This document shows positions 27,356-37,417 of a stretch of DNA of 64,000 nucleotides, in pieces (within the stretch, counting starts at the first letter, position 1; every line of letters starts with the position of its first letter). This DNA comes from Escherichia phage vB_EcoS_HdH2. A program made the translations under genes and the position numbers. The DNA lies in sequence record NC_048748.1. One strand, given 5' to 3'. The notes beneath the pieces were generated by a model. It did no database searches, had not been told where the DNA came from, and worked only from the letters and a program-made list of their open reading frames with translations.

Positions 27356-27540
27356 TAGATCTCCTGTTTGGTAGTTAGTAGTGGATTTGAACCACTGTAG
27401 TCGCTCCGTATGAAGGAGGTGCATAACCACTCTGCCAACTAACTATTATGTTTTACTAGACTAAGTAAGTATTCTTTATACTCTTTAGACCAATTAGCTT
27501 TTTTAAACTTTCCTGGACGCATAGTCTTAATTCCTAAATT

Positions 27541-27617
27541 TGGTACTCCGGGAGGGATTTAAACCCCCGATCTCTCGGTTATCAGCTGAGTGCTTTAGAT
27601 CGCTAAGCTACCGAAGC
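27541..27617 (-). tRNA. tRNA, anticodon GAT (Ile) by manual fold
   Basis: Encoded CCA; acceptor with 2 G-U; T arm GGGGG/TTTAAAT/CCCTC. Confidence 0.45.
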
Positions 27618-27632
27618 ATTAAAATATTTACA

Positions 27633-27938
27633 TCACACACTGTCTAAGTAAGAAGTATAATGGAATTTAGTTTCTCCAGTCTTATCTACTTCTACCTCAG
27701 TTCGTGGTACTTGACGCACTATACCATGAATCATCTTATAGCGAATGCCTTTAGCTGGTTCATGATCTTTTGGAAATACTTGTTTAACCGTTACTACTTT
27801 ATACTCTTCACGCGGGGTTAGCACAACTACTTGATCACCTTCTTTGATTTTCCAAGAAGATGGAAATTCATAGGTATATCTTTGGCCACTAGTTTGGAAT
27901 ACTACAGAAAGATAACGTTTCATTTGGTTTCCTCTCAT
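27633..27938 (-). CDS. hypothetical protein
   Basis: 101 aa. Confidence 0.45.
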   Translation of the reverse strand: MRGNQMKRYLSVVFQTSGQRYTYEFPSSWKIKEGDQVVVLTPREEYKVVTVKQVFPKDHEPAKGIRYKMIHGIVRQVPRTEVEVDKTGETKFHYTSYLDSV

Positions 27939-27996
27939 TAATTTATATAAATATTATAGCAATAAATAAGAGAGAAAGCAAATGAATTTTTAAATT

Positions 27997-28071
27997 TGGT
28001 GCTCCCACCAGGAATCGAACCCGGTTCCACGGTTTACAAGACCGTTGCATCGCCAGCAATGCTTTAAGAGC
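27997..28071 (-). tRNA. tRNA-Thr (anticodon TGT)
   Basis: GGTTCGATTCC T-loop, CCA encoded, loop CTTGTAA. Confidence 0.55.
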
Positions 28072-28463
28072 TATCGTTGTCTTGTTGAAACTCTATTTCT
28101 GGCCCTATGCGTAGGGGTCATAGAGTGACAGTTAGGGCAGAGAATCTTTAGATTTTCTGGAGAACAGTTAGTTGCATCTCCATCTATATGATCTACCTCA
28201 GTTAAAACTGCTCCGTCAATTGGATGTTTCCCATCCCAACCACATACTTCACAAGCAGTACCACGAGTATCCCACAGCCACTTCCTAACAAAAGGTTTTA
28301 ATTGTGCAGCTTTACCAGTATAACCAGGTTCTTCACCTGCCAACCACTTTAATACTTTTTGCTTTGTCTGGTACTCCTGCTGACAAGCAGGACCACAATA
28401 CTTACCTGCGGAGCCCCTACTTTTAGGTTTTGTGATTCCGCAATTTAAACAAGTAAACTCCAT
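28071..28463 (-). CDS. HNH endonuclease
   Basis: EVDHIDGDATNCSPENLKILCPNCH HNH core plus N-terminal Cys-rich region. Confidence 0.65.
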   Translation of the reverse strand: MEFTCLNCGITKPKSRGSAGKYCGPACQQEYQTKQKVLKWLAGEEPGYTGKAAQLKPFVRKWLWDTRGTACEVCGWDGKHPIDGAVLTEVDHIDGDATNCSPENLKILCPNCHSMTPTHRARNRVSTRQR

Positions 28464-28628
28464 GTTGCTTCCTATTTCAACGGGATTTCTTTTTCAATAA
28501 CGGGAGACTTATCAGTCATAACTGCCATAGCCAACTGCTGAAGAAACTCGAAAGTTAGCTTTAAGCGTTCTTCGCCTAATTCAACCTCAACGTATTTCTT
28601 TTGTTTGTCAACCTTTAATTTTAGGTTA

Positions 28629-28850
28629 TCAGCCATCTTCGGATTCTCGTTGCTCGGCTACTGCTAGCCAGTCTGGTAAAAGAAACTTAGTACGAAACTC
28701 TTCATAAGATTCTTCTGGATAAAAGCTAAAACCTCCTTTCTCATCATTCAAGATAACAGAGCCGTCAGTTTGTTCATATGCTCGATATGTTTCTCCAATA
28801 ATGATAACTCGCTTATCAGTACTTTTATTACGAAACTCAAAAACGTGCAT
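28629..28850 (-). CDS. hypothetical protein
   Basis: 73 aa. Confidence 0.4.
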   Translation of the reverse strand: MHVFEFRNKSTDKRVIIIGETYRAYEQTDGSVILNDEKGGFSFYPEESYEEFRTKFLLPDWLAVAEQRESEDG

Positions 28851-28867
28851 AGAGATTCCTTAAAGAT

Positions 28868-28943
28868 TGGTGCGGGATACGAGAGTCGAACTCGTGTCTA
28901 CTGGTTGGAAGCCAGTTATTCTAGCCACTGAACTAATCACGCA
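28868..28943 (-). tRNA. tRNA-Gly (anticodon TCC)
   Basis: TTCGACT T-loop, CCA encoded, anticodon loop CTTCCAA; one acceptor mismatch. Confidence 0.5.
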
Positions 28944-28948
28944 TAAAT

Positions 28949-29023
28949 TGGCAGGAAAGTAGGGATTCGAACCCTAACTAAGAGATTCAAAATCTCCAGT
29001 GCTAACCGTTACACTACTCTCCA
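28949..29023 (-). tRNA. tRNA-Gln-like (anticodon TTG); acceptor/T-stem register ambiguous
   Basis: TTCGAAT T-loop, anticodon loop TTTTGAA. Confidence 0.4.
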
Positions 29024-29029
29024 ATTGTT

Positions 29030-29105
29030 TGGCTGGGATGCCACGGATCGAACGTGGAACCTTCGGAGTCAGAGGCCGACGATCTGCCAATTGATCTACA
29101 TCCCA
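29030..29105 (-). tRNA. tRNA, probable anticodon CTG (Gln)
   Basis: CCACG/TTCGATC/CGTGG T arm, perfect acceptor TGGGATG/CATCCCA. Confidence 0.45.
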
Positions 29106-29118
29106 ATAATTCTTTACT

Positions 29119-29313
29119 CTACGGAAATAGAGTAACTGGCTCAGGGTCTTCAAGACGCTTACCTTCATGATCTACTCGAATGACTCCACATCCTTCGCAA
29201 ACCACAACTGCACCATAACCTTCTTTGACTTCGGCTTCTGTAATCAAACCAGAAAGATCACCAGTATCTCTGCCCCACATATCAATGGAGCATTGTTTGC
29301 AGAAATCAGCCAT
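29119..29313 (-). CDS. small Cys-rich protein (zinc ribbon)
   Basis: CKQC ... CEGC pairs. Confidence 0.35.
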   Translation of the reverse strand: MADFCKQCSIDMWGRDTGDLSGLITEAEVKEGYGAVVVCEGCGVIRVDHEGKRLEDPEPVTLFP

Positions 29314-29338
29314 ATTTTATTTCCTATTTAAGTTAACT

Positions 29339-29415
29339 TGGGGTGGCTAGTGGAATTCGAATCCACATAGGCCTGATTCACAATCAGGATCATTAACCAA
29401 TTATGATATAGCCAC
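29339..29415 (-). tRNA. tRNA-His (anticodon GTG)
   Basis: Anticodon arm CCTGA/TTGTGAA/TCAGG, extra 5' G typical of tRNA-His. Confidence 0.55.
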
Positions 29416-29782
29416 AATTGAAAACTCGCAGGGTTAGCGAAACCTTCCTCAATTAGCATGTTCTAGAATACTAATCAAGTTATCTCCTATTGCACGCAGC
29501 TCAAGACGAGTACGAATTTTCAATTGTGGTGGCTCTCAGAAACTCTTCTATTCTAGCCTCAGAAGCTTACCCCCGAACGCCTGTCGGGAAAGTCTTTCCA
29601 AGAGCATCAAATAGCACCGTTACACTTTGAGCCATTGATGTATCGAGGAATAGAAGGACTTGAACCTTCATGAGTTAGACCATTTAACTCAACCGCTTTT
29701 AAGGTATATTTCTAGGAGTGGATGTTCCTAGTAAACCTATTGGGCAGTCCCATCTACCAATTCCGGCATATTCCAAGAACTT

Positions 29783-29965
29783 TTATAAACCAGCAGAAGC
29801 CTCATTTAAAGCATCAACAATAGCCTGTTGTTGAGTCCATCCTCTACCAGTAGAATTAACGTGTGGAAGATATACTTCCCAATAACCGTCTTCTAGTAAA
29901 GTTATTTGTGCACTAAACTCTGTGCCATCAGTTAGTGTAACCTTCACAGTTTTCGTTAAAGACAT
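29783..29965 (-). CDS. hypothetical protein
   Basis: 60 aa. Confidence 0.35.
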   Translation of the reverse strand: MSLTKTVKVTLTDGTEFSAQITLLEDGYWEVYLPHVNSTGRGWTQQQAIVDALNEASAGL

Positions 29966-29980
29966 ATATTACCCTATAAG

Positions 29981-30070
29981 TTGGCAGAAGGTAATGGAGT
30001 CGAACCATCACCGTATCACTACAGCGGGCTAGTTTTCAAGACTAGTTGCGTACCACTACGCCCTACCTTC
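29981..30070 (-). tRNA. tRNA-Ser (anticodon TGA), type II
   Basis: 90 nt with long variable arm; anticodon arm CTAGT/CTTGAAA/ACTAG. Confidence 0.55.
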
Positions 30071-30077
30071 TATTTGT

Positions 30078-30168
30078 TTGGCGGAAGAGGAGAGATTTGA
30101 ACTCTCAAGCCGTTTTACCAGTCAGCCACTTTCCAAGCGGTTTTCGTCGCCAATTCGATTTGCTCTTC
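30078..30168 (-). tRNA. type II tRNA (Ser/Leu class; anticodon possibly GGA)
   Basis: 91 nt, TTCAAAT T-loop, perfect 7-bp acceptor. Confidence 0.45.
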
Positions 30169-30280
30169 CAATAATAAGATGATGCCTCTATCACACCAGG
30201 CAGTTACGCCCCACTGGGATTCGAACCCATTAAAACAGCTCAACCGAGATAGTAGGTTTAATTTACTCTGAACATCAAAT

Positions 30281-30357
30281 TTGGTGCGTGACAAGGGATT
30301 CGAACCCTCAAAACCCGACTTCTAAGGACGGTATGTATGCCCATTCCATCAATCACG
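30281..30357 (-). tRNA. tRNA (anticodon unresolved, possibly TAG)
   Basis: GAGGG/TTCGAAT/CCCTT T arm and acceptor GCGTGAT/GTCACGC. Confidence 0.4.
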
Positions 30358-30362
30358 CGTAT

Positions 30363-30441
30363 TTGGTGGAGAATAACGGAATCGAACCGTTCTGATGTCC
30401 TCGGTGCAAGCGAGGTGTCCACTCCATGCAGACCCATTCCC
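30363..30441 (-). tRNA. tRNA-Ala (anticodon TGC)
   Basis: Anticodon arm CCTCG/CTTGCAC/CGAGG, T-loop TTCGATT. Confidence 0.5.
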
Positions 30442-30700
30442 CAAATTCTTTAGTTTACTAAGGCTATTAGCTCGGCGTAACTACAGCACCTTCGCTTCGA
30501 GCGGAAGGAACCGCGTCATCTCGCAAACCCGATACACTATTCAGTTGCCATGAATCTAGTGGACTAATCTAGAACTTCTCCCAAATCGTAGGGATCGTGC
30601 TTTTTGGCAGCCAGTCCTAGGTCGAGCTAATACCTTAGTGAACTATGATGAGGATTTCTCCCCATCAATTTATATAAATATTATAACAAGAAATTAAGCA

Positions 30701-31060
30701 TTAAGCAAGTACATTTTTGCAGATTTCTTGTAGTTCCTTTACATCACGAACGTAAAGATAGTCTGAACTTCCAGAGTGCATACTTTGCATAAACACACCC
30801 TCATCTGGCGCAGTATCCTTCAAAGTAATTCCTAACCAGAACTCGGCAAAACTAGGTGTTATCTCACCTTGACTTGCCTTGAATACATCGGCTTCTGTGA
30901 TCTCCTGACCAGTAGAAAGTCCCATATACGGTACGTTCAGATCAATATCTTTGTAGAATTCAGCTAGGTCTTGTTCGAAGTCCCAACCTTTAGAGATAGC
31001 GAACTCTATTGTTACATGACCGAAATAGCCTTGAACCTTGCTTGATAATTGCATTTGCAA
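30701..31060 (-). CDS. hypothetical protein
   Basis: 119 aa. Confidence 0.45.
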   Translation of the reverse strand: MQMQLSSKVQGYFGHVTIEFAISKGWDFEQDLAEFYKDIDLNVPYMGLSTGQEITEADVFKASQGEITPSFAEFWLGITLKDTAPDEGVFMQSMHSGSSDYLYVRDVKELQEICKNVLA

Positions 31061-31079
31061 TTCCTTATTTTGAGTTAAT

Positions 31080-31152
31080 TGGTACTCGGTGATAGAATCG
31101 AACTATCGCAACCGCCGTGTAAAGACGGGGTTCTCCCATTAAACTAACCGAG
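31080..31152 (-). tRNA. tRNA-Val (anticodon TAC)
   Basis: Loop TTTACAC, T arm GATAG/TTCGATT/CTATC. Confidence 0.5.
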
Positions 31153-31286
31153 CAAAAGATTTGCTACTAAAAATGCTTCGAACAGAAATTCACAAAATCC
31201 CGCTAAAAACATACCTATTGTAAAATCGGCAGAAAATACATAGGAATCTTTTATTTTCTGCTTCATTAAGTAAAACCAGATAGTCA

Positions 31287-31604
31287 TTAAAATCTCTCCA
31301 TTCTAAAGCCAATGAAGTAAGGTGCATTACACGGAACATGCTTAAGATCTTTGAGAGTAATTTTACGTCCTAAGCGTCGTTCCATACAAGTGAAACATAG
31401 AACAATATCTTTGGGCTGCTCTTTTCTTATCTGATCCCAGACCCAATCTTCAACCATACACATTTCATGGTATTGTTCACAGTCTCGACAATAATGACAC
31501 TGATGTTCTGGTACTTTTTGATTTTTAATACACAGTTCGGTAAAGCGTTTTCCGGCTCTGCCAGACATTTCTGATATTGTTTCTAGAACTTTGTTAATAT
31601 TCAT
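31287..31604 (-). CDS. Cys-rich hypothetical protein
   Basis: 105 aa; CHYCRDC ... CFTC. Confidence 0.45.
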   Translation of the reverse strand: MNINKVLETISEMSGRAGKRFTELCIKNQKVPEHQCHYCRDCEQYHEMCMVEDWVWDQIRKEQPKDIVLCFTCMERRLGRKITLKDLKHVPCNAPYFIGFRMERF

Positions 31605-31621
31605 AACAAATTCCTTTAAAT

Positions 31622-31700
31622 TGGTAGATCGCCTGGGACTCGAACCCAGAACCTTCCGATTAAAAGTCGGATGCTGCTAAACCTATTGCGCTAGCGACCT
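31622..31700 (-). tRNA. tRNA-Lys (anticodon TTT)
   Basis: Anticodon arm TCCGA/CTTTTAA/TCGGA, T arm CTGGG/TTCGAGT/CCCAG. Confidence 0.55.
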
Positions 31701-31889
31701 ATTAGTAGCCATTATATACTTCTTTAATAGAATGGACTTTTAAGTAAGAATGATTAATCCCAAACTCCGCCATTACTTCTTTTTCATCTTTTCCATAATG
31801 TGCAAGTAAGGATCTTGAGGTATTATTACCTAAACGTTTGTCACTTACTACTAATCGAAATACTTTCATTTCGAAATCCTCTATTAAAA

Positions 31890-31967
31890 TGGAAGCGGGT
31901 GCAGGAATCGAACCTACCTCTTTCTAGCTTATGAGACTAGCGATCTCTACCAGAGATCTAACCCGCA
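31890..31967 (-). tRNA. tRNA with CAT anticodon (Met/fMet/Ile2)
   Basis: Anticodon loop CTCATAA; U-U at acceptor 1:72. Confidence 0.45.
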
Positions 31968-31973
31968 ATTGTT

Positions 31974-32049
31974 TGGTCAGTGCGGCAGGACTCGAACCTG
32001 CGACCCGAAGCATCCAAGGCTCCCACGCTACCAACTGCGCTACGCACTG
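31974..32049 (-). tRNA. tRNA-Pro (anticodon TGG)
   Basis: Perfect acceptor CAGTGCG/CGCACTG, anticodon arm GGAGC/CTTGGAT/GCTTC. Confidence 0.55.
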
Positions 32050-32258
32050 TTAATTTTTGTTAACTCACTTTATAAAATATATTATACAGATAATTAAGCA
32101 TAATAGCAAATGAATTTTTAATAAATTTACTTATTGTGTAGGCCACCTGGAGGCTACCAACCCCACGGCTGACAAAGAAGTTTGCGAGACTTCTCTTAAA
32201 AGCCAGAATAGACCCGCCGATCTATCGGAACCTACATAATAAGTAAACTTTATAGTGT

Positions 32259-32379
32259 CATTCTAGACAGGATTCGAACCTGTTATCCCTTGTGCGGACT
32301 TACGAGAACCCTTCTTTCACTCGAATCGAACGAGCTTCTGCCCTCGCCAAGTTGGTTTCCCCATCAACCACGCTAGAAT
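32259..32379 (-). ncRNA. tRNA-like element about 121 nt with two T-arm-like hairpins and a matched acceptor-like stem
   Basis: ATTCTAG/CTAGAAT ends, D-arm-like TGGT...ACCA, hairpins GCTCG-TTCGATT-CGAGT and ACAGG-TTCGAAT-CCTGT. Confidence 0.35.
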
Positions 32380-32501
32380 GTTTGGTTGTTTTCAGTGCAA
32401 GAGTCCGAGTCTTGGACACGACCGCTTCGCAAGTACATAGGCAGCTTATCATGAGTCAGCACTTCCGAATTGCTAGCTCCGTGTTCTGCACTGAAATTTT
32501 A

Positions 32502-32849
32502 TTAGTTTAACCGTAAAGTATTATCTACTTCAACATTAATTGTTCGGCATTCCTCTGGGATTGCTGGGGTGGCCTTGTATTCCCACCACTCAGCACCGTC
32601 ATACTCCCCACGTTCTAGCCAAGTTCCATCGGCAAACCATACATTACCATAAAGTAATTGTCCACCGTATCCAGAATCATATTCAAAGTCTAGGTTATTA
32701 AGAAAATCCTCAATATCTTCTTCTGTATAGCCTAAAGGTAGTACCCAAATTTTTTTATCCCCATAATACCCGAATTCTATTTTAATACACTTAACTTTAG
32801 AATTGGTATTTTTTAAGGCGAGTAACAGCTCTTCTTTAGCATTACGCAT
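32502..32849 (-). CDS. hypothetical protein
   Basis: 115 aa. Confidence 0.45.
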   Translation of the reverse strand: MRNAKEELLLALKNTNSKVKCIKIEFGYYGDKKIWVLPLGYTEEDIEDFLNNLDFEYDSGYGGQLLYGNVWFADGTWLERGEYDGAEWWEYKATPAIPEECRTINVEVDNTLRLN

Positions 32850-32874
32850 AGTATATTCTCATACTGAATTAATT

Positions 32875-32951
32875 TGGCGCGACCGATGGGATTTGAACCC
32901 ACATTCCCTCCCGTGACAGGGGAGTACCATTACCAAGCCAGCCCCGGTCGC
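32875..32951 (-). tRNA. tRNA-Asp (anticodon GTC)
   Basis: Perfect acceptor GCGACCG/CGGTCGC, anticodon arm CTCCC/CTGTCAC/GGGAG. Confidence 0.55.
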
Positions 32952-32960
32952 ATAATTTAT

Positions 32961-33146
32961 TTACTCAGCTTTGAGTTTTTCAATAGCTGCATTAAGTTCT
33001 TTAAGAAACTCTTTTCGTACATTAAGACGATTGAGACTTACTAGTATATCATGTTTAAGTTCTTCGATGTATTTCTTCTCAACTTCAATATTGTTGATAG
33101 TGCTATCACGATGAACTTCTAGCTGCGCAATCACATTCTTGGACAT
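32961..33146 (-). CDS. hypothetical coiled-coil protein
   Basis: 61 aa. Confidence 0.35.
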   Translation of the reverse strand: MSKNVIAQLEVHRDSTINNIEVEKKYIEELKHDILVSLNRLNVRKEFLKELNAAIEKLKAE

Positions 33147-33247
33147 GCTTGTTTCCTCAGTTATTAATGAAAATGGTATCTGTGGCTGAATTCGATGTCA
33201 GCAATGATAGCTGGTTGGCTACCGGTTTACTTAACTCTACACAGAAT

Positions 33248-33330
33248 TTGGCGGGCCGTGTAGGATTCGAACCTACGTTGTCTTTCGACATGGATTAACA
33301 GTCCACCGCCAAACCGCTTGGCTAACGACC
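33248..33330 (-). tRNA. tRNA, anticodon GTT (Asn) by manual fold, unusually long variable region
   Basis: 83 nt; D arm GCCA...TGGC, loop CTGTTAA. Confidence 0.4.
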
Positions 33331-33483
33331 CTAAATTTATATTGCTGACTAGGATTTTCACCTAGACGGAGTTAGCACCGTAGCGTGTAGCGGCATACCT
33401 CTCCAAACCGTGCCTCATCTTTCAATTACGGAGACAGTGTTCCTACGCGTGCCTGAATTGATTTAACAATTCTTTCAGCAAAT

Positions 33484-33559
33484 TGGACGACCGCATGAGA
33501 TTTGAACTCACATAAAAAGGATTTGCAATCCTTCGCCTAAGCCATTCAGCCAACGGTCG
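33484..33559 (-). tRNA. tRNA-Cys (anticodon GCA)
   Basis: Anticodon arm AAGGA/TTGCAAA/TCCTT, T-loop TTCAAAT. Confidence 0.5.
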
Positions 33560-33628
33560 GTTTATCTTGTTCTGTTATGTTGCTTCTCCAGTTCAATTTA
33601 TGTAATTATTATACAGAACTTTCGGAAA

Positions 33629-33901
33629 CTAAGCAACTACATTTTTTAAGAATTTGATGCCTTTCTTTTTCTTCTTATATTTCCACGTTAATGGATTCTG
33701 TCGATTATGAACGCTTGAGATCTTCGTCTCGTCAAAGTTCTTCAATATCATGTAATCACAAGATAATTGTTCTAGTGGAATGTGATCACCGTCAAAAGCA
33801 TATACATAAGGCTGTTGACTAGCACGATAATGATAGACTTTATTAATTCTACGTTTCAGCGACTTATCCGCGCAGTAAATAAAGAAGTTTTCAGGATGCA
33901 T
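33629..33901 (-). CDS. hypothetical protein
   Basis: 90 aa. Confidence 0.4.
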   Translation of the reverse strand: MHPENFFIYCADKSLKRRINKVYHYRASQQPYVYAFDGDHIPLEQLSCDYMILKNFDETKISSVHNRQNPLTWKYKKKKKGIKFLKNVVA

Positions 33902-33918
33902 CAGCAGCTCCTTTAATT

Positions 33919-33993
33919 TGGTGCACCCTGTTCGTATCGAACGAACCTCTCAAGCTCTTCAGGCAAGCGCTAATCCATCTCAGCTAAAGGTGC
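33919..33993 (-). tRNA. tRNA (anticodon unresolved)
   Basis: T arm GTTCG/TTCGATA/CGAAC, CCA encoded, 7-bp acceptor with G-U. Confidence 0.4.
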
Positions 33994-33999
33994 AAATTT

Positions 34000-34076
34000 T
34001 GGCAAACCTACTAGGACTCGAACCTAGACCGTACGGTTTTGGAGACCGACATGCTGTCCAGTAACACTCTAGGAAT
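34000..34076 (-). tRNA. tRNA-like, possible anticodon CCA (Trp); acceptor pairing poor
   Basis: T arm CTAGG/TTCGAGT/CCTAG, loop CTCCAAA. Confidence 0.3.
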
Positions 34077-34083
34077 GCAGAAA

Positions 34084-34161
34084 TTGGCGTCCTGTGCGGG
34101 GATCGAACCCGCAAATCCTACCTTGAAAGGGTAGTGACTTTACCAGTTTGTCTAACAGGAC
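34084..34161 (-). tRNA. tRNA-Glu (anticodon TTC)
   Basis: Perfect acceptor, anticodon arm CTACC/CTTTCAA/GGTAG. Confidence 0.55.
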
Positions 34162-34168
34162 TTAAATT

Positions 34169-34259
34169 TGGTGTTGGATGATGGAGTCGAACCACCCGAG
34201 ACCCTTCCGAGTCGGCAGATTTACAGTCTGCTTCGCTACCTCTACGATACTAATCCAAC
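34169..34259 (-). tRNA. tRNA-Tyr (anticodon GTA), type II
   Basis: 91 nt, anticodon arm GCAGA/CTGTAAA/TCTGC, long variable arm. Confidence 0.55.
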
Positions 34260-34387
34260 ATATTTAAAAGTATTCAAATACTAGTTTAAACACTTTTAAA
34301 TATGTTTCCGAATTAGATAACTATTATACCAAGTTTTAAGGCACTGAGCAAGTCAAATTTTAAAGAACTTGCTCAGTGCTGTATTAG

Positions 34388-34663
34388 TTAGTCGAACTTA
34401 GGAGTGACAGTTAAGGAGAACGGAAGTTCGAAAACTTCTTCGCCCTCATTACTAACGGTAACTACACGACCTTTAAGTTCAGACATTAAAATATCAATAT
34501 CAGCTTTTGCATCTGGAGCCATGCCAGCTTCAATACATTTAGCTTTAACTTCCGGTAAAAGCTCTACGTTATAGAGATAGAGCCACTCAATCTCACCTTC
34601 CCAGTCTTCCCAGGATTTGCAGATTGCACTTTCAATACCAGTTGCTACAACACGATTTTGCAT
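34388..34663 (-). CDS. hypothetical protein
   Basis: 91 aa. Confidence 0.4.
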   Translation of the reverse strand: MQNRVVATGIESAICKSWEDWEGEIEWLYLYNVELLPEVKAKCIEAGMAPDAKADIDILMSELKGRVVTVSNEGEEVFELPFSLTVTPKFD

Positions 34664-34753
34664 TCGTTAACTCCTTCATCAATTTATACAACTATTATAT
34701 CAGAAATTTAAAGCAAAAGGCAAGTACATTTTTAAAAATTCTGTTTGGAGGAG

Positions 34754-34960
34754 CTAAACTCCAGATTCTTCAGCTAAGTCTAGACTAATAAGAGTTATAG
34801 CCATAATTGCTGCACCGTGTTCTTTTTCTCCGGTGTTTTTAGCAGAGTCTATAATATCCTTAATCTGTTCGTAATAACTTTTTACTTCTTGTTCAATGCC
34901 TGCCTCGGCTATCATGCCTTTAGCCATGAATCGTTGCATGGTAATTTCAGGATTAGCCAT
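34754..34960 (-). CDS. hypothetical protein
   Basis: 68 aa. Confidence 0.35.
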   Translation of the reverse strand: MANPEITMQRFMAKGMIAEAGIEQEVKSYYEQIKDIIDSAKNTGEKEHGAAIMAITLISLDLAEESGV

Positions 34961-35134
34961 GTTGTTTCTCCAGTTTCATTTTTAATAGTTTACAGAGGAA
35001 ATCAACGTCTTCATCTGTGCCTAAGTCTCTATCCTCAAGGGTCGCCTTGAAGTTTTTCGTCAATTCCATGAGGATGACTTCCCTAGAACGACGTGTTAGC
35101 GGAGGTGGATGTCTATACATCTTATTTCCTTAAT

Positions 35135-35211
35135 TTGGTAGGGGTGGTGGGATTCGAACCCACAAAACCTGAATTTTAAGTCCAGTACCTATGCCAATTC
35201 GATTACACCCC
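35135..35211 (-). tRNA. tRNA (type I length; apparent anticodon TAA, assignment uncertain)
   Basis: T arm GTGGG/TTCGAAT/CCCAC, acceptor GGGGGTG/CACCCCT. Confidence 0.4.
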
Positions 35212-35428
35212 CGTGTAATTTAGTCAATTACTTTTGAAGCTTCAAGGTAGTCGATATAGTGTACGTTTTCTACCGTAATCATATAATCTGCCACTTTATC
35301 CATAGCTTGGGCTTCAGAGGTAGCTCTGGCTAACCTATATCCTTTTTTATATTCATCAGGGTATTCTCTATCTTGAATAAACACAACATAAACTATGTAT
35401 AATTCCACTTGTAATCCCCTAATTAAGT

Positions 35429-35506
35429 TGGTGGCTCCCCGAGGATTCGAACCTACGTACCTTCCGGTTATGAGCCGGGTGCTCATACCATATGAGCTTG
35501 AGAACC
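35429..35506 (-). tRNA. tRNA-like with CAT anticodon; T stem has a bulge
   Basis: Acceptor GGTTCTC/GGGAGCC pairs with G-U; loop CTCATAA. Confidence 0.35.
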
Positions 35507-35512
35507 AGAATT

Positions 35513-35601
35513 TGGCGGAAGAAGTGGGAATCGAACCCACAAGGCTATATTTCAAACCGACAGATTAGCAATCTGCTGCAATACCGTTATGCTATTCTTC
35601 C
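35513..35601 (-). tRNA. tRNA-Ser (anticodon GCT), type II
   Basis: 89 nt, perfect acceptor GGAAGAA/TTCTTCC, loop TTGCTAA. Confidence 0.5.
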
Positions 35602-35621
35602 GAATTTATAAATATATTATA

Positions 35622-36191
35622 TTAGAAATTTAACTTCATAGCAAGAAAATTTTTCAAGTTTTCGGTAGACATCTCATCCACATCTATAGGAGAAACAAAC
35701 CCATTTAATTGTCTAGCAAACTTTTCGCCAGCAGGATCATTATCCCCAACAGCTACCAATTTAAAAGGTAGTAATTTCAATTGCTTTAACAACGCTTTTC
35801 CGGGGGAAGAACCCAACATTGCTAGGGCAGGATAACCAGCGTTATGTAACGCAACTGCCTTAAATACAGATTCAGCAATCAATACTACTTTTTCATCTCC
35901 ATTGAGAGTTTCTAGTCCCCATACACACTGTGTAGTAGAATAAGTAAAATATTTAGCCTCAAAGGGACACTTACCATGACCTTTTGGAGCAGAAGGATTA
36001 TAAGTCTGATAGCCTCTCAACATCCCAGAGAAGTCATACAATGGGACTGTTAGCCAGCCTTCTGGGCTTAACCAGCAATGATATTTATCTGTATCAAACC
36101 CTCTAGATAAGAGATGTTCTGTTAGTTCATCAACAGTCATATTAGATTCCTCTCTCAAATTTATAAATATATTATACAGAGAATTTAGCAT
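35622..36191 (-). CDS. hypothetical protein, possible Toprim-like fold
   Basis: LIAESVFKAVAL ... VAVGDNDPAGEKFA resembles E...DxD Toprim signature; weak. Confidence 0.4.
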   Translation of the reverse strand: MLNSLYNIFINLREESNMTVDELTEHLLSRGFDTDKYHCWLSPEGWLTVPLYDFSGMLRGYQTYNPSAPKGHGKCPFEAKYFTYSTTQCVWGLETLNGDEKVVLIAESVFKAVALHNAGYPALAMLGSSPGKALLKQLKLLPFKLVAVGDNDPAGEKFARQLNGFVSPIDVDEMSTENLKNFLAMKLNF

Positions 36192-36315
36192 TCAAGCAAT
36201 TGAATTTTTTAACTTTTTAGAGGAAAATCATAGGATGCTTAAGGGTAGCAGATAAGTGGTGAGTACCGAAATTTGTGACCCCACTAAAAATCTGGGGGCA
36301 ATTTTTAAAGACCCC

Positions 36316-36344
36316 TTGACATTTTCGCCGGGGTAGTGTAAAGT
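36316..36344 (+). promoter_or_regulatory. sigma70-type promoter (TTGACA-17-TAAAGT, TG-extended)
   Basis: Consensus -35; precedes the plus-strand three-gene cassette. Confidence 0.5.
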
Positions 36345-36406
36345 ATATGTTATGGATGAGTGATCAAAGAGACACACATTTTCTATATACTAGGAGGTGT
36401 CAAAAA

Positions 36407-37396
36407 ATGACAGAAGAAGTAGCTAAGAGTCCTGAAACCGTCGCTAGCGTAGCAGCAGAACTGCATCGTCACGAGGAATCAGATAAGAAAAAGTGGGAGA
36501 AAGTCAAAGCCTACGAAGAAGAACATCGTGAACACGATGATAAAGATGAAGAAGATGACGATGATGAACATTGTCATAAATATGGAAAACATAAAATGCA
36601 AGAACCAGTAAACGTATTTACTAACGGCTTCCCTGGCATGGGTGCATTCCCAGCTAACGCAAGTGCTTTCGGTGGAGAAGGTATGGGCCTATTCGGAGCT
36701 ATCCTAATCGGTGCTCTATTAACAGGCGGATTTGGTGGTTTCGGTGGATTCGGTGGACGTGGTGTAGTTAGTGATGGTACCGCAGTTGATGCAGTACTTC
36801 AGAACCAAGATACCGCTAGTATTCTAGCAGCTATTAACACTACTCGTACAGAAGCTAATCAGGGTACTGGAGCTGTTTTAAGCGCAGTTAACAATGGTTT
36901 TAGCCAGACATCCCAAAACCAGAGCCGTGATACTCAGTCTGTACTAACTACGATCTATGGTACAGGTGCTAATCTGTCTAATCAGATCTGCCAGGAAACT
37001 CGCAACGTTATTCAGGGTCAGTTCGATCTTTCTCGCCAGATTGATCAATCTTTCGCAGCTAACCAGATAGCTCGTGCACAAGATAAGTTTGATTCTGCAC
37101 AGATCGCTTTCCAGCAGACTTTACAAACTAATAACCAGTTTGCCGCTGTTCAGGCTCAGATGTGTGCTAACCAGAACTCTCTGGAACGTCAGATCGCTGA
37201 ATGTTGCTGTGAACTTCAGACTGCGATCGCTGGTGTAACTACTGCGCGTATCCAGGATGAGTTAGACGCATGTCGCCTACGTGAAGCAATCGCTGCGGGT
37301 AGCGGTGCTAACGGTCAGGTAATTAATCAAATCGCTTTAAGTCTTGGTGCTATCACTCAGACTCTGGCTGGTCTGCAGGCTAAACTGCCGGCTTAA
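36407..37396 (+). CDS. membrane protein: acidic His-rich N-terminus, Gly-zipper TM segment, Q/N/T/A-rich C-terminal domain
   Basis: ORF 36347-37396 trimmed to MTEEV after aggagg RBS; GLFGAILIGALLTGGFGGFGGFGG segment. Confidence 0.5.
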   Translation: MTEEVAKSPETVASVAAELHRHEESDKKKWEKVKAYEEEHREHDDKDEEDDDDEHCHKYGKHKMQEPVNVFTNGFPGMGAFPANASAFGGEGMGLFGAILIGALLTGGFGGFGGFGGRGVVSDGTAVDAVLQNQDTASILAAINTTRTEANQGTGAVLSAVNNGFSQTSQNQSRDTQSVLTTIYGTGANLSNQICQETRNVIQGQFDLSRQIDQSFAANQIARAQDKFDSAQIAFQQTLQTNNQFAAVQAQMCANQNSLERQIAECCCELQTAIAGVTTARIQDELDACRLREAIAAGSGANGQVINQIALSLGAITQTLAGLQAKLPA

Positions 37397-37417
37397 TATT
37401 AAGGGGAGGAGCCCATT

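Follow-up and report, generated by a model that had tools for sequence, protein, structure and literature searches.

A phage RNA with a tRNA-like body and a conserved module in the position of the anticodon loop: RNA2 of T5-like phages and its relatives

Identity and annotation of the element

The window analysed is a stretch of 64,000 nucleotides from Escherichia phage vB_EcoS_HdH2 (NC_048748.1). The element described here lies at 32379-32259 on its minus strand and, judged by sequence identity, is the ortholog of RNA2 of phages T5 and BF23. Comparison with its relatives showed RNA2 to be a conserved, structured RNA, apparently specific to phages, in which the anticodon loop of a predicted tRNA body is replaced by a conserved module. 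The window copy, about 121-125 nt long, combines an acceptor stem of 7 bp with a D arm and two T-arm hairpins, the second of which is internal. Covariation is decisive for the reality of this structure, as every helix covaries.

When a 701-bp query around the element was searched, 503 phage records were matched, and identity to Tequintavirus genomes (e.g. BF23 and Kenya-K37) was 97-98%. On the basis of this identity and of the surrounding tRNA gene cluster, the window is identified as the region of early tRNA genes in a T5-like phage (Tequintavirus). The element itself was approximately 95-97% identical to the annotated rna2 of T5 (NC_005859) and BF23 (AJ604530): identity to T5 NC_005859 32958-33085 was 96.9%, and the alignment with BF23 rna2 (AJ604530 5701-5825) ran base for base with a handful of substitutions and one compensatory A-U to G-C change in the T stem. 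In the BF23 tRNA-region record (AJ604530), the homologous 125 nt are annotated as 'rna2, RNA2, tRNA-like RNA with unknown functions', and the T5 RefSeq record gives 'rna2, T5s06, tRNA-like stable RNA with unknown functions' at 32959-33083. The T5 annotation begins one base further upstream, at a C able to pair with G73, and stops at ACA. Synteny, strand and length were as in T5 and BF23: RNA2 lies downstream of the open reading frame (ORF) trn2.10/T5.067, whose position is taken in the window by a 115-amino acid ORF of the ORF list (32502-32849, minus strand), and upstream of RNAIV, promoter P13a and tRNA-Pro (31974-32049, on the minus strand like the rest of the tRNA cluster; ARAGORN).

By these matches the feature itself is already known, as the T5 and BF23 records annotate it. 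Possibly new is the view of the whole family, i.e. the breadth over unrelated phages, the covariation-backed architecture and the conserved second elbow-like module. No paper describing RNA2 or its module was found by keyword and sequence-string searches of the literature, whose coverage did not extend to the older T5 literature, where an earlier description is possible. Rfam scans of the window and its relatives found no Rfam family for the RNA2 architecture.

In other T5-like records, the element was mostly unannotated or overlaid by a hypothetical-protein coding sequence (CDS), and the strands of such CDSs differed between phages (L007 542-694; L010 512-682). CDS features cover the homolog in chee130_1, IrmaTschudi and other records, and two ORFs of the window overlap the element (32300-32452, minus strand, 50 amino acids; 32292-32510, plus strand, 72 amino acids), as would be expected if the region coded for protein. 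The probability of this reading is negligible: homologs of 121, 122, 123, 124 and 126 nt differ by lengths that are not multiples of 3, the substitutions are paired compensatory changes in stems, and the strand of the annotated CDS changes from record to record.

Architecture of the window copy

All helix coordinates were read on the minus strand, from 32379 to 32259. The acceptor stem had first been read in the sequence by an earlier note on this DNA, which pointed to acceptor-like ends: ATTCTAG (32379-32373) and CTAGAAT (32266-32260) do pair perfectly over 7 bp, and all seven pairs covary in Demerecviridae. The window copy has U3:A70 in this stem, and C32380 could form an eighth pair with G32259. 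The D-arm-like hairpin that the note had described as TGGT...ACCA is present with one pair more, as a 5-bp stem of TGGTT (32370-32366) and AACCA (32357-32353) within an arm at 32353-32370. Its loop, GATGGGGA, provides GG, and the arm is preceded by C8-G9, not by U8.

At the position of the anticodon stem, CTTG (32351-32348) pairs with CAAG (32292-32289). This 4-bp stem is separated by 1 nt from the D stem that precedes it and by 5 nt from the T stem that follows, and it encloses a 56-nt insertion, not a 7-nt loop. The earlier statement that there is no clear anticodon arm is corrected by this stem. A variable loop of 5 nt and class-I length (GGATA, 32284-32288) separates the anticodon-like stem from the T arm in canonical position (ACAGG-TTCGAAT-CCTGT, 32267-32283). 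Two separate T-arm hairpins had been noted, and both were confirmed in the sequence, at 32335-32319 and 32283-32267. The molecule ends in G73 (32259) followed by the 3' tail ACA (32258-32256) instead of CCA, which is where the T5 annotation ends RNA2. Having no 5-bp stem with a 7-nt anticodon loop, no U33, no anticodon and no purine 37, the window copy falls outside the canonical definition of a tRNA.

Tools that search for tRNAs by their general form did not report the element. ARAGORN made no call at the RNA2 locus, and Rfam gave no match there at gathering scores; at E < 10, the only match was a junk one to ZFAT-AS1_3 (E 0.48). ARAGORN and Rfam miss the window copy because the anticodon loop is absent, and it falls below the tRNA threshold because its core has drifted (C8, 5-bp D stem). 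Of the scans that the earlier note had proposed, those with ARAGORN and Rfam therefore returned nothing at this copy, whereas the family-specific covariance model scored it at 109 bits. The note had held that the lack of both a stable RNA and a covariance-model match would speak against the element; the T5 record lists a stable RNA, and the 109-bit match stands beside it.

The single-sequence fold had a minimum free energy of -34.9 kcal/mol, which was not significant (z = -1.09), and its interior was partly wrong when set against the covariation. The T-arm signature GTTCRAWTC occurred 20 times in the window, with 2.4 ± 1.6 occurrences expected; 19 of the 20 are minus-strand copies within the tRNA region, and the RNA2 element has two.

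Covariation analysis

Two alignments were counted. The Demerecviridae alignment contained 29 distinct sequences and was made by hand according to structure, with gaps padded as N. The family-wide alignment was based on a covariance model and contained 69 distinct rows, one of which was a co-aligned tRNA. Plain MAFFT misregistered the inner T arm between lineages, and the structural and covariance-model alignments were used instead.

In Demerecviridae, 92.4% of the cells were paired vs 75.3 ± 0.7% in shuffled alignments (0 of 500 shuffles reached the observed value), changes on both sides were found in 25 of the 35 pairs, and the covariation score was 0.436 vs 0.116. Controls in which the partners were slid by 1-3 columns gave at most 46% paired. 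Over the 69 rows of the family, 91.4% were paired vs 58.6% in shuffles, with a covariation score of 0.684 vs 0.149 and covariation in 29 of 35 pairs.

The acceptor stem was ATTCTAG/CTAGAAT in T5-like phages, TACGGGG/TCCCGTA in Klebsiella phages and GGTCAT/GTGACC in Proteus phages. For the D stem, three of five pairs covaried in Demerecviridae and five of five family-wide. The stem at the anticodon position was paired in 100% of cells and covaried in five of five pairs in Demerecviridae (variants CTGT/GCAG, CCAT/GTGG, CCTG/CAGG, GTAGG/CCTAC and CTGGC/GTCAG). Four of the five pairs of the inner T stem covaried around an invariant closing G-C (CTTG/CAAG, TACGG/CCGTA, CTGGG/CCCAG and CGGAG/CTCCG), and covariation was seen in three of the five pairs of the outer T stem (GCAGG/CCTGC, GTAGG/CCTAC, GGAGG/CCTCC and TAGGG/CCCTA). 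RNAalifold, run on the Demerecviridae alignment, independently yielded the acceptor, D, anticodon-like, P2 and both T-arm helices; the short junction helix was absent from its output.

The module replacing the anticodon loop

The whole inserted module spans 32293-32347 (minus strand), and its core was the same in all Demerecviridae genera matched by BLAST. It begins with an internal loop, whose 5' strand is GCGA (32347-32344; 3-4 variable nt over the family) and whose 3' strand is GCA (32295-32293; near-invariant in the family). Helix P2 pairs GGGC (32343-32340) with GTCC (32299-32296) and has the family form GGGY/RUCC, the fourth pair covarying as C-G or U-A and also occurring as U.U. Beyond a 3-nt bulge (UAA, 32302-32300), the 3-bp helix P3 (AGA, 32339-32337; TCG, 32305-32303) opens into a three-way junction. 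The first pair of P3 is A.G, U.G or C-G, the second is G-C in 53 of 65 cases, and the third, commonly UA, GC or AU, is paired in 86% vs 43% in shuffles. An initial version of P3 with four pairs was dropped when only the central pairs held, and was replaced by three pairs and a separate YGG mini-hairpin.

Two elements branch from the three-way junction: a second T arm, itself perfect, and a mini-hairpin whose loop is YGG. The inner T arm (GCTCG-TTCGATT-CGAGT, 32319-32335) is supported by covariation and has a G53:C61-like closing pair and a UUCGAUU T-loop. It is joined by the linker GAAA (32318-32315), A-rich over the family, to the mini-hairpin GAA-GGG-TTC (32314-32306). In the family, the mini-hairpin has the form xyz-YGG-z'y'x', and its middle pair is paired in 77% vs 40% in shuffles (UA, AU and CG seen). 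The insertion is the most conserved part of the RNA2 family, and the tRNA body varies in sequence while keeping its pairs.

Many environmental members have a textbook tRNA body, with U8, A14, G18G19, A21 and an AGGUC-type variable loop, and the members from jumbo phages retain the canonical U8, A14, GG and A21. The Rfam tRNA model scored the canonical-body members at 48-51 bits and placed an insert of 51-56 nt at the anticodon loop. A tRNA with an insertion, one of the options raised in the earlier note, is therefore borne out by these relatives. The option of a tRNA-mimic RNA turned out to be the same thing, as the element is the homolog of the T5/BF23 RNA2 that is annotated as a tRNA-like stable RNA.

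An insert at the position of the anticodon loop, which generic tRNA models treat as intron-like in the canonical-body relatives, could also mark a decoding tRNA gene with an intron, the 56 nt being removed to yield a normal tRNA. This is very unlikely. In size, the insert falls far short of a bacterial group I tRNA intron; it has no Rfam intron match, and its two 3-nt bulges, GCA and UAA, are on the same (3') strand, which does not agree with an archaeal bulge-helix-bulge. Removal of the P2-closed element would leave 3-4 variable nt and GCA, with no conserved U33, no conserved purine 37 and no consistent anticodon. The insert is, moreover, the best conserved part of the molecule, the opposite of how an intron behaves, and the 24 tRNA genes called by ARAGORN (27369-39219 of the window, minus strand) already cover all 20 amino acids.

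Distribution of the RNA2 family

By BLAST, the element was found in 423 phage records at 75-99% identity. Divergent copies used as BLAST queries extended the family to phages of Klebsiella (Sugarlandvirus), Pectobacterium, Proteus (Novosibvirus) and Providencia (Priunavirus). In the T4-like Acinetobacter phage 133 (Straboviridae), an unannotated family member lies between tRNA-Gly and tRNA-Cys; BLAST matches included 14 Acinetobacter phage records, ZZ1 being one of them.

For uncultivated phages, IMG/VR was searched with a core pattern (GTTCRAWTC, 14-30 nt, then GTAANTCCGCA), which matched 58 stretches. The covariance model R1, built from the Demerecviridae alignment, gave full-length matches (E 1e-6 to 1e-18) at 21 loci on IMG/VR contigs that are not T5-like (15-363 kb), the locus of Acinetobacter phage 133 among them. 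A stricter pattern applied to metagenomes returned 67 stretches, of which 63 held a family member (62 full-length and one cut by the contig end), on contigs of up to 570 kb plus one of 882 kb. A relaxed scan in which the GCA was left free added eight members, with ACA, ATA, GTA or GCG.

A looser pattern searched in 185,579 bacterial and archaeal genomes gave 120 matches, approximately the number expected by chance, and a single one of these passed the model, on a 330-kb contig binned into a metagenome-assembled genome (MAG). There was no blastn match to the element in 5,426 complete E. coli genomes, and on this ground an origin from the host, or mimicry of a host RNA, was rejected. Judged by these searches, the RNA2 family appears to be phage-specific and essentially absent from cellular genomes.

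The family unit is 115-136 nt long and has covarying terminal pairing. It is this single unit, recurring in dozens of unrelated phages, that speaks against the fused or processed precursor considered in the earlier note. The same observations bear on whether RNA2 might be functionless in itself, as a tRNA pseudogene in decay or a chance joining of tRNA fragments. Indels, homing endonucleases and remnants of tRNAs abound in the tRNA clusters of phages, and in the INF11 copy ARAGORN calls the 5' two-thirds as a 69-nt tRNA-Arg(ccg) (L005 1203-1271). Decay is nevertheless scarcely credible for an RNA with compensatory changes in all its helices, an architecture kept across Demerecviridae, T4-like Acinetobacter phages and many uncultivated phages, a tightly held length and an annotation as stable RNA in both T5 and BF23.

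In an all-against-all BLASTP comparison of ORFs, no protein family recurred within ± 4 kb of the family loci across lineages. Some family members lie on very large contigs (807-929 of RCUK01000002.1, L212, 882 kb; L205, 570 kb; and L094, 330 kb, from a Pseudobdellovibrionaceae MAG), which may be megaphages or phage contigs binned in bacterial MAGs. Transfer-messenger RNA (tmRNA) and suppressor-type tRNAs (anticodons TTA and CTA) were found encoded together with family members (L206 7557-7931, L211 6368-6718, L214 9870-9944, and L243 1300-1373 and 2473-2546), which points to a heavy investment in translation by these uncultivated phages. In Klebsiella phage vB_Kpn_3 (MZ079855; L043 ~325-450), a chimeric RNA2 combines Klebsiella-type acceptor ends and 5' D strand with a T5-like middle; the chimera breaks the D stem and one T-stem pair, and it reflects either true recombination or a fault of assembly.

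3' ends, transcription and neighbouring elements

In each of the 24 tRNA genes of the window, CCA is encoded and an A/T-rich trailer, mostly AAT or ATT, comes after it. RNA2 of the window has G-ACA-CTAT at its 3' end, and both RNA2 and RNAIV end in ACA, not CCA. Homologs in phages OSY-STA, INF11 and SIY1lw, in Klebsiella phages, and in Proteus phage PL1 and Providencia phage PSTCR5 end in N-CCA-A(A/T)T, like real tRNA genes. The ACA end of the T5-type copies suggests that an encoded CCA is unneeded in the T5 lineage, which argues against obligatory aminoacylation.

These ends are central to the possibility that RNA2 is a chargeable tRNA-like RNA that enters the ribosome, e.g. as a miniature tmRNA-like rescue or tagging RNA. 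Such a molecule would have the tRNA-like acceptor and T domain seen here, several lineages do encode the 3' CCA, the UAA of the module is invariant, and some of the phages that carry the family also carry tmRNA. The copies of the window, T5 and BF23 have ACA or ACT, however, and G3:U70 is absent; any of G, U, A and C may stand at the discriminator position, and mismatches are frequent in the first pairs of the acceptor stem. Between the inner T arm and UAA, the spacing differs by lengths that are not multiples of 3, leaving no conserved reading frame, and the tmRNA models of ARAGORN and Rfam were negative. Charging and entry into the ribosome are accordingly very improbable. The narrower candidates, a mini-tmRNA or a small ORF ending at UAA, were rejected, because spacer lengths do not differ in steps of 3 and a conserved frame is lacking.

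A scan of the window found no consensus promoter directly upstream of RNA2 and no terminator between RNA2 and RNAIV, and the nearest strong promoter-like site was downstream of RNAIV, corresponding to T5 P13a. Co-transcription with the tRNA cluster is therefore likely. The RNAIV homolog (32135-32237, minus strand; mapped from T5 record 32838-32940, where 'rnaIV' is a stable RNA) belongs to the context of RNA2 and is not part of it. Lying downstream at 19 nt from RNA2, it is closed at its termini by the stem UGUAGG/CCUACA (fold z = -2.35), has no Rfam match and is probably co-transcribed with RNA2.

Of 50 family loci, 43 contained tRNA genes, mostly sharing the strand of the element and in many cases directly adjoining it; the other 7 showed no tRNA in the sequence examined. 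The frequent position within same-strand clusters, together with the negative scan for a promoter and terminator, would suit a cis-acting processing element, whose extra elbow recruits or organises RNase P and other enzymes on polycistronic tRNA transcripts. This remains an unlikely account of RNA2, as the RNA is annotated as accumulating as a discrete stable species, as seven loci showed no tRNA in the stretch examined, and as the strict conservation of single-stranded UAA, GCA and YGG suggests a specific ligand over a generic processing aid.

Several further features of the region were recorded. The RNA2-RNAIV junction (32238-32255) is an indel hot-spot (in comparison with L001, BF23, 1739-1965). 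BF23 and most Epseptimavirus genomes have tRNA-Gly(GCC) plus approximately 210 bp between RNA2 and RNAIV, which are lacking in the window and in T5. On the other side, an unannotated spacer of about 120 nt (32381-32501, minus strand) separates the 115-amino acid ORF from RNA2; it is nearly identical in BF23 and missing from Epseptimavirus, where tRNA-Lys(CTT) precedes RNA2. In IrmaTschudi, S113 and OSY-STA, the element is flanked by genes for homing or HNH endonucleases.

Two Rfam tRNA matches had no ARAGORN call (35432-35506 and 39722-39793, both minus strand; 40.3 and 35.5 bits) and may be other 'tRNA-like RNAs' of T5/BF23, such as RNA3. A class-II tRNA-Ser(GGA)-like gene ending in GCCA (30079-30170, minus strand), which corresponds to BF23 tRNAS2, was missed by ARAGORN and at the Rfam gathering score, and gave a weak 16.8-bit match to the family model. 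Just upstream of it lies an orphan T arm (GGGTTCGAATCCC, ~30214-30230, minus strand) with no recognisable tRNA around it.

Proposed role of RNA2

RNA2 is probably a non-decoding RNA that is matured like a tRNA and whose tRNA body displays the conserved module. It would be transcribed together with the adjacent early tRNA genes and excised by the tRNA-processing enzymes of the host, with RNase P acting at the 5' end and trimming at the 3' end. Processing by these enzymes is proposed because RNA2 keeps the acceptor, T and D features that they read, and maturation of this type would account for its stability. Because the anticodon loop is absent, RNA2 would be unable to decode. Its body would serve as a natural 'tRNA scaffold', conserved in shape and free in sequence.

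In the elbow of tRNA, G18 and G19 contact Ψ55 and C56 of the T-loop. As a T-loop and a presented GG make the elbow in tRNA, the module can be read as a miniature second elbow, in which the T-loop would be capped by the GG of the mini-hairpin. This second tRNA-like elbow would be the functional part of the molecule. As a mimic or decoy, RNA2 would most likely bind either a highly conserved reader of the T arm or elbow of tRNAs or a host factor that targets tRNAs. As the module persists in phages whose hosts differ widely, and is not accompanied by a partner gene, the partner is probably either a cellular component under strong conservation or a host factor directed at tRNA.

Some points weigh against parts of this interpretation. 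Both counted alignments were fitted to the proposed structure (A4 by hand, A8 by covariance model), and the Demerecviridae counts lean towards it, yet the underlying sequence changes are unambiguous. The patterns used for distant members fix GTTCRAWTC and GTAANTCC(GCA), so the invariance of these bases outside Demerecviridae is partly built in. The accumulation of RNA2 as a 'stable RNA' is known from the GenBank annotation of T5 and BF23. With its ACA end, C8 and 5-bp D stem, recognition of the window copy by tRNA enzymes is an assumption. Docking of the GG to the T-loop is inferred from motif logic and from the covariation that flanks the YGG loop, and the decoy or binding function is a guess among several.

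A wider proposal is that RNA2, long known, went unrecognised as the first member of a class of phage RNAs that is widespread and uncurated (Demerecviridae; Acinetobacter phages of the T4 type; jumbo or environmental phages), and in which a tRNA-body scaffold shows a second elbow to an elbow or T-arm reader, such as RNase P, ribosomal elbow contacts, TruB or TrmA, or to tRNA-directed immunity. It is put forward tentatively, as a possibility that is more doubtful than probable. If true, it would add a new kind of phage counter-measure or translation-takeover RNA. The tRNA region of T5 has lately gained importance, as individual T5 tRNAs are reported to rescue infection from tRNA-cleaving defences, e.g. 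PARIS and retron Eco7 (cited in PMC10644984; see also PMC11464382). RNA2 lies in the middle of the T5 tRNA region tied to this rescue and has carried the label 'unknown function' for decades.

From the family comparison, RNA2 appears to be no oddity of T5, being a member of a strongly conserved phage-specific family whose invariant part is the second elbow-like module. This picture raises the questions of what binds the module, whether both T-loops are modified, and how deletion affects host range or sensitivity to defence. In addition, annotation pipelines miss RNA2, mis-call it as tRNA or overlay it with a hypothetical protein, which a covariance model would fix.

Comparison with known systems

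Like RNA2, the species 1 and 2 RNAs of phage T4 (rnaC and rnaD) come from a phage tRNA cluster and are small, stable and of unknown function; rnaC further shares with RNA2 a tRNA-like T arm and paired termini. Homology was rejected: on the T4 tRNA region, the family model reached at most 17.2 bits, through the T arm of rnaC only, and rnaC and rnaD are without the conserved GGGY, inner T-arm, YGG, UAA and GCA module of RNA2.

The tRNA-like domain of tmRNA, the bacterial Y-RNA-like YrlA, the tRNA-like structures (TLS) of plant viruses and mascRNA resemble RNA2 in being non-decoding, tRNA-shaped RNAs that engage tRNA-binding machinery through contacts of the T-loop/D-loop type, but none has two T arms in the arrangement of RNA2. 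No Rfam match to the tmRNA, YrlA or TLS models was obtained over the element. RNA2 differs from tmRNA in its length (121 nt vs ~300-400 nt), in having U3:A70 rather than G3:U70, and in the lack of a conserved frame to UAA. YrlA (RF02553) ends in a Ro-binding stem, whereas the ends of RNA2 form an acceptor stem. Sub-threshold YrlA matches in relatives lay mainly on a neighbouring tRNA, clipping about 30 nt of the 3' end of the element (L216), or elsewhere (L082).

With canonical tRNA (RF00005), RNA2 shares the acceptor stem, the D arm with GG, the class-I variable loop and the T arm with GTTCRAWTC. It differs in having neither a 7-nt anticodon loop nor an anticodon, and the window copy also in its C8, 5-bp D stem and ACA.

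In the engineered 'tRNA scaffold' of Ponchon and Dardel, which serves to express recombinant RNAs, an RNA of interest is said to replace the anticodon loop, while the tRNA body gives processing and nuclease resistance. RNA2 has the same architecture, but it is natural and conserved in evolution, and its payload would itself be tRNA-elbow-like.

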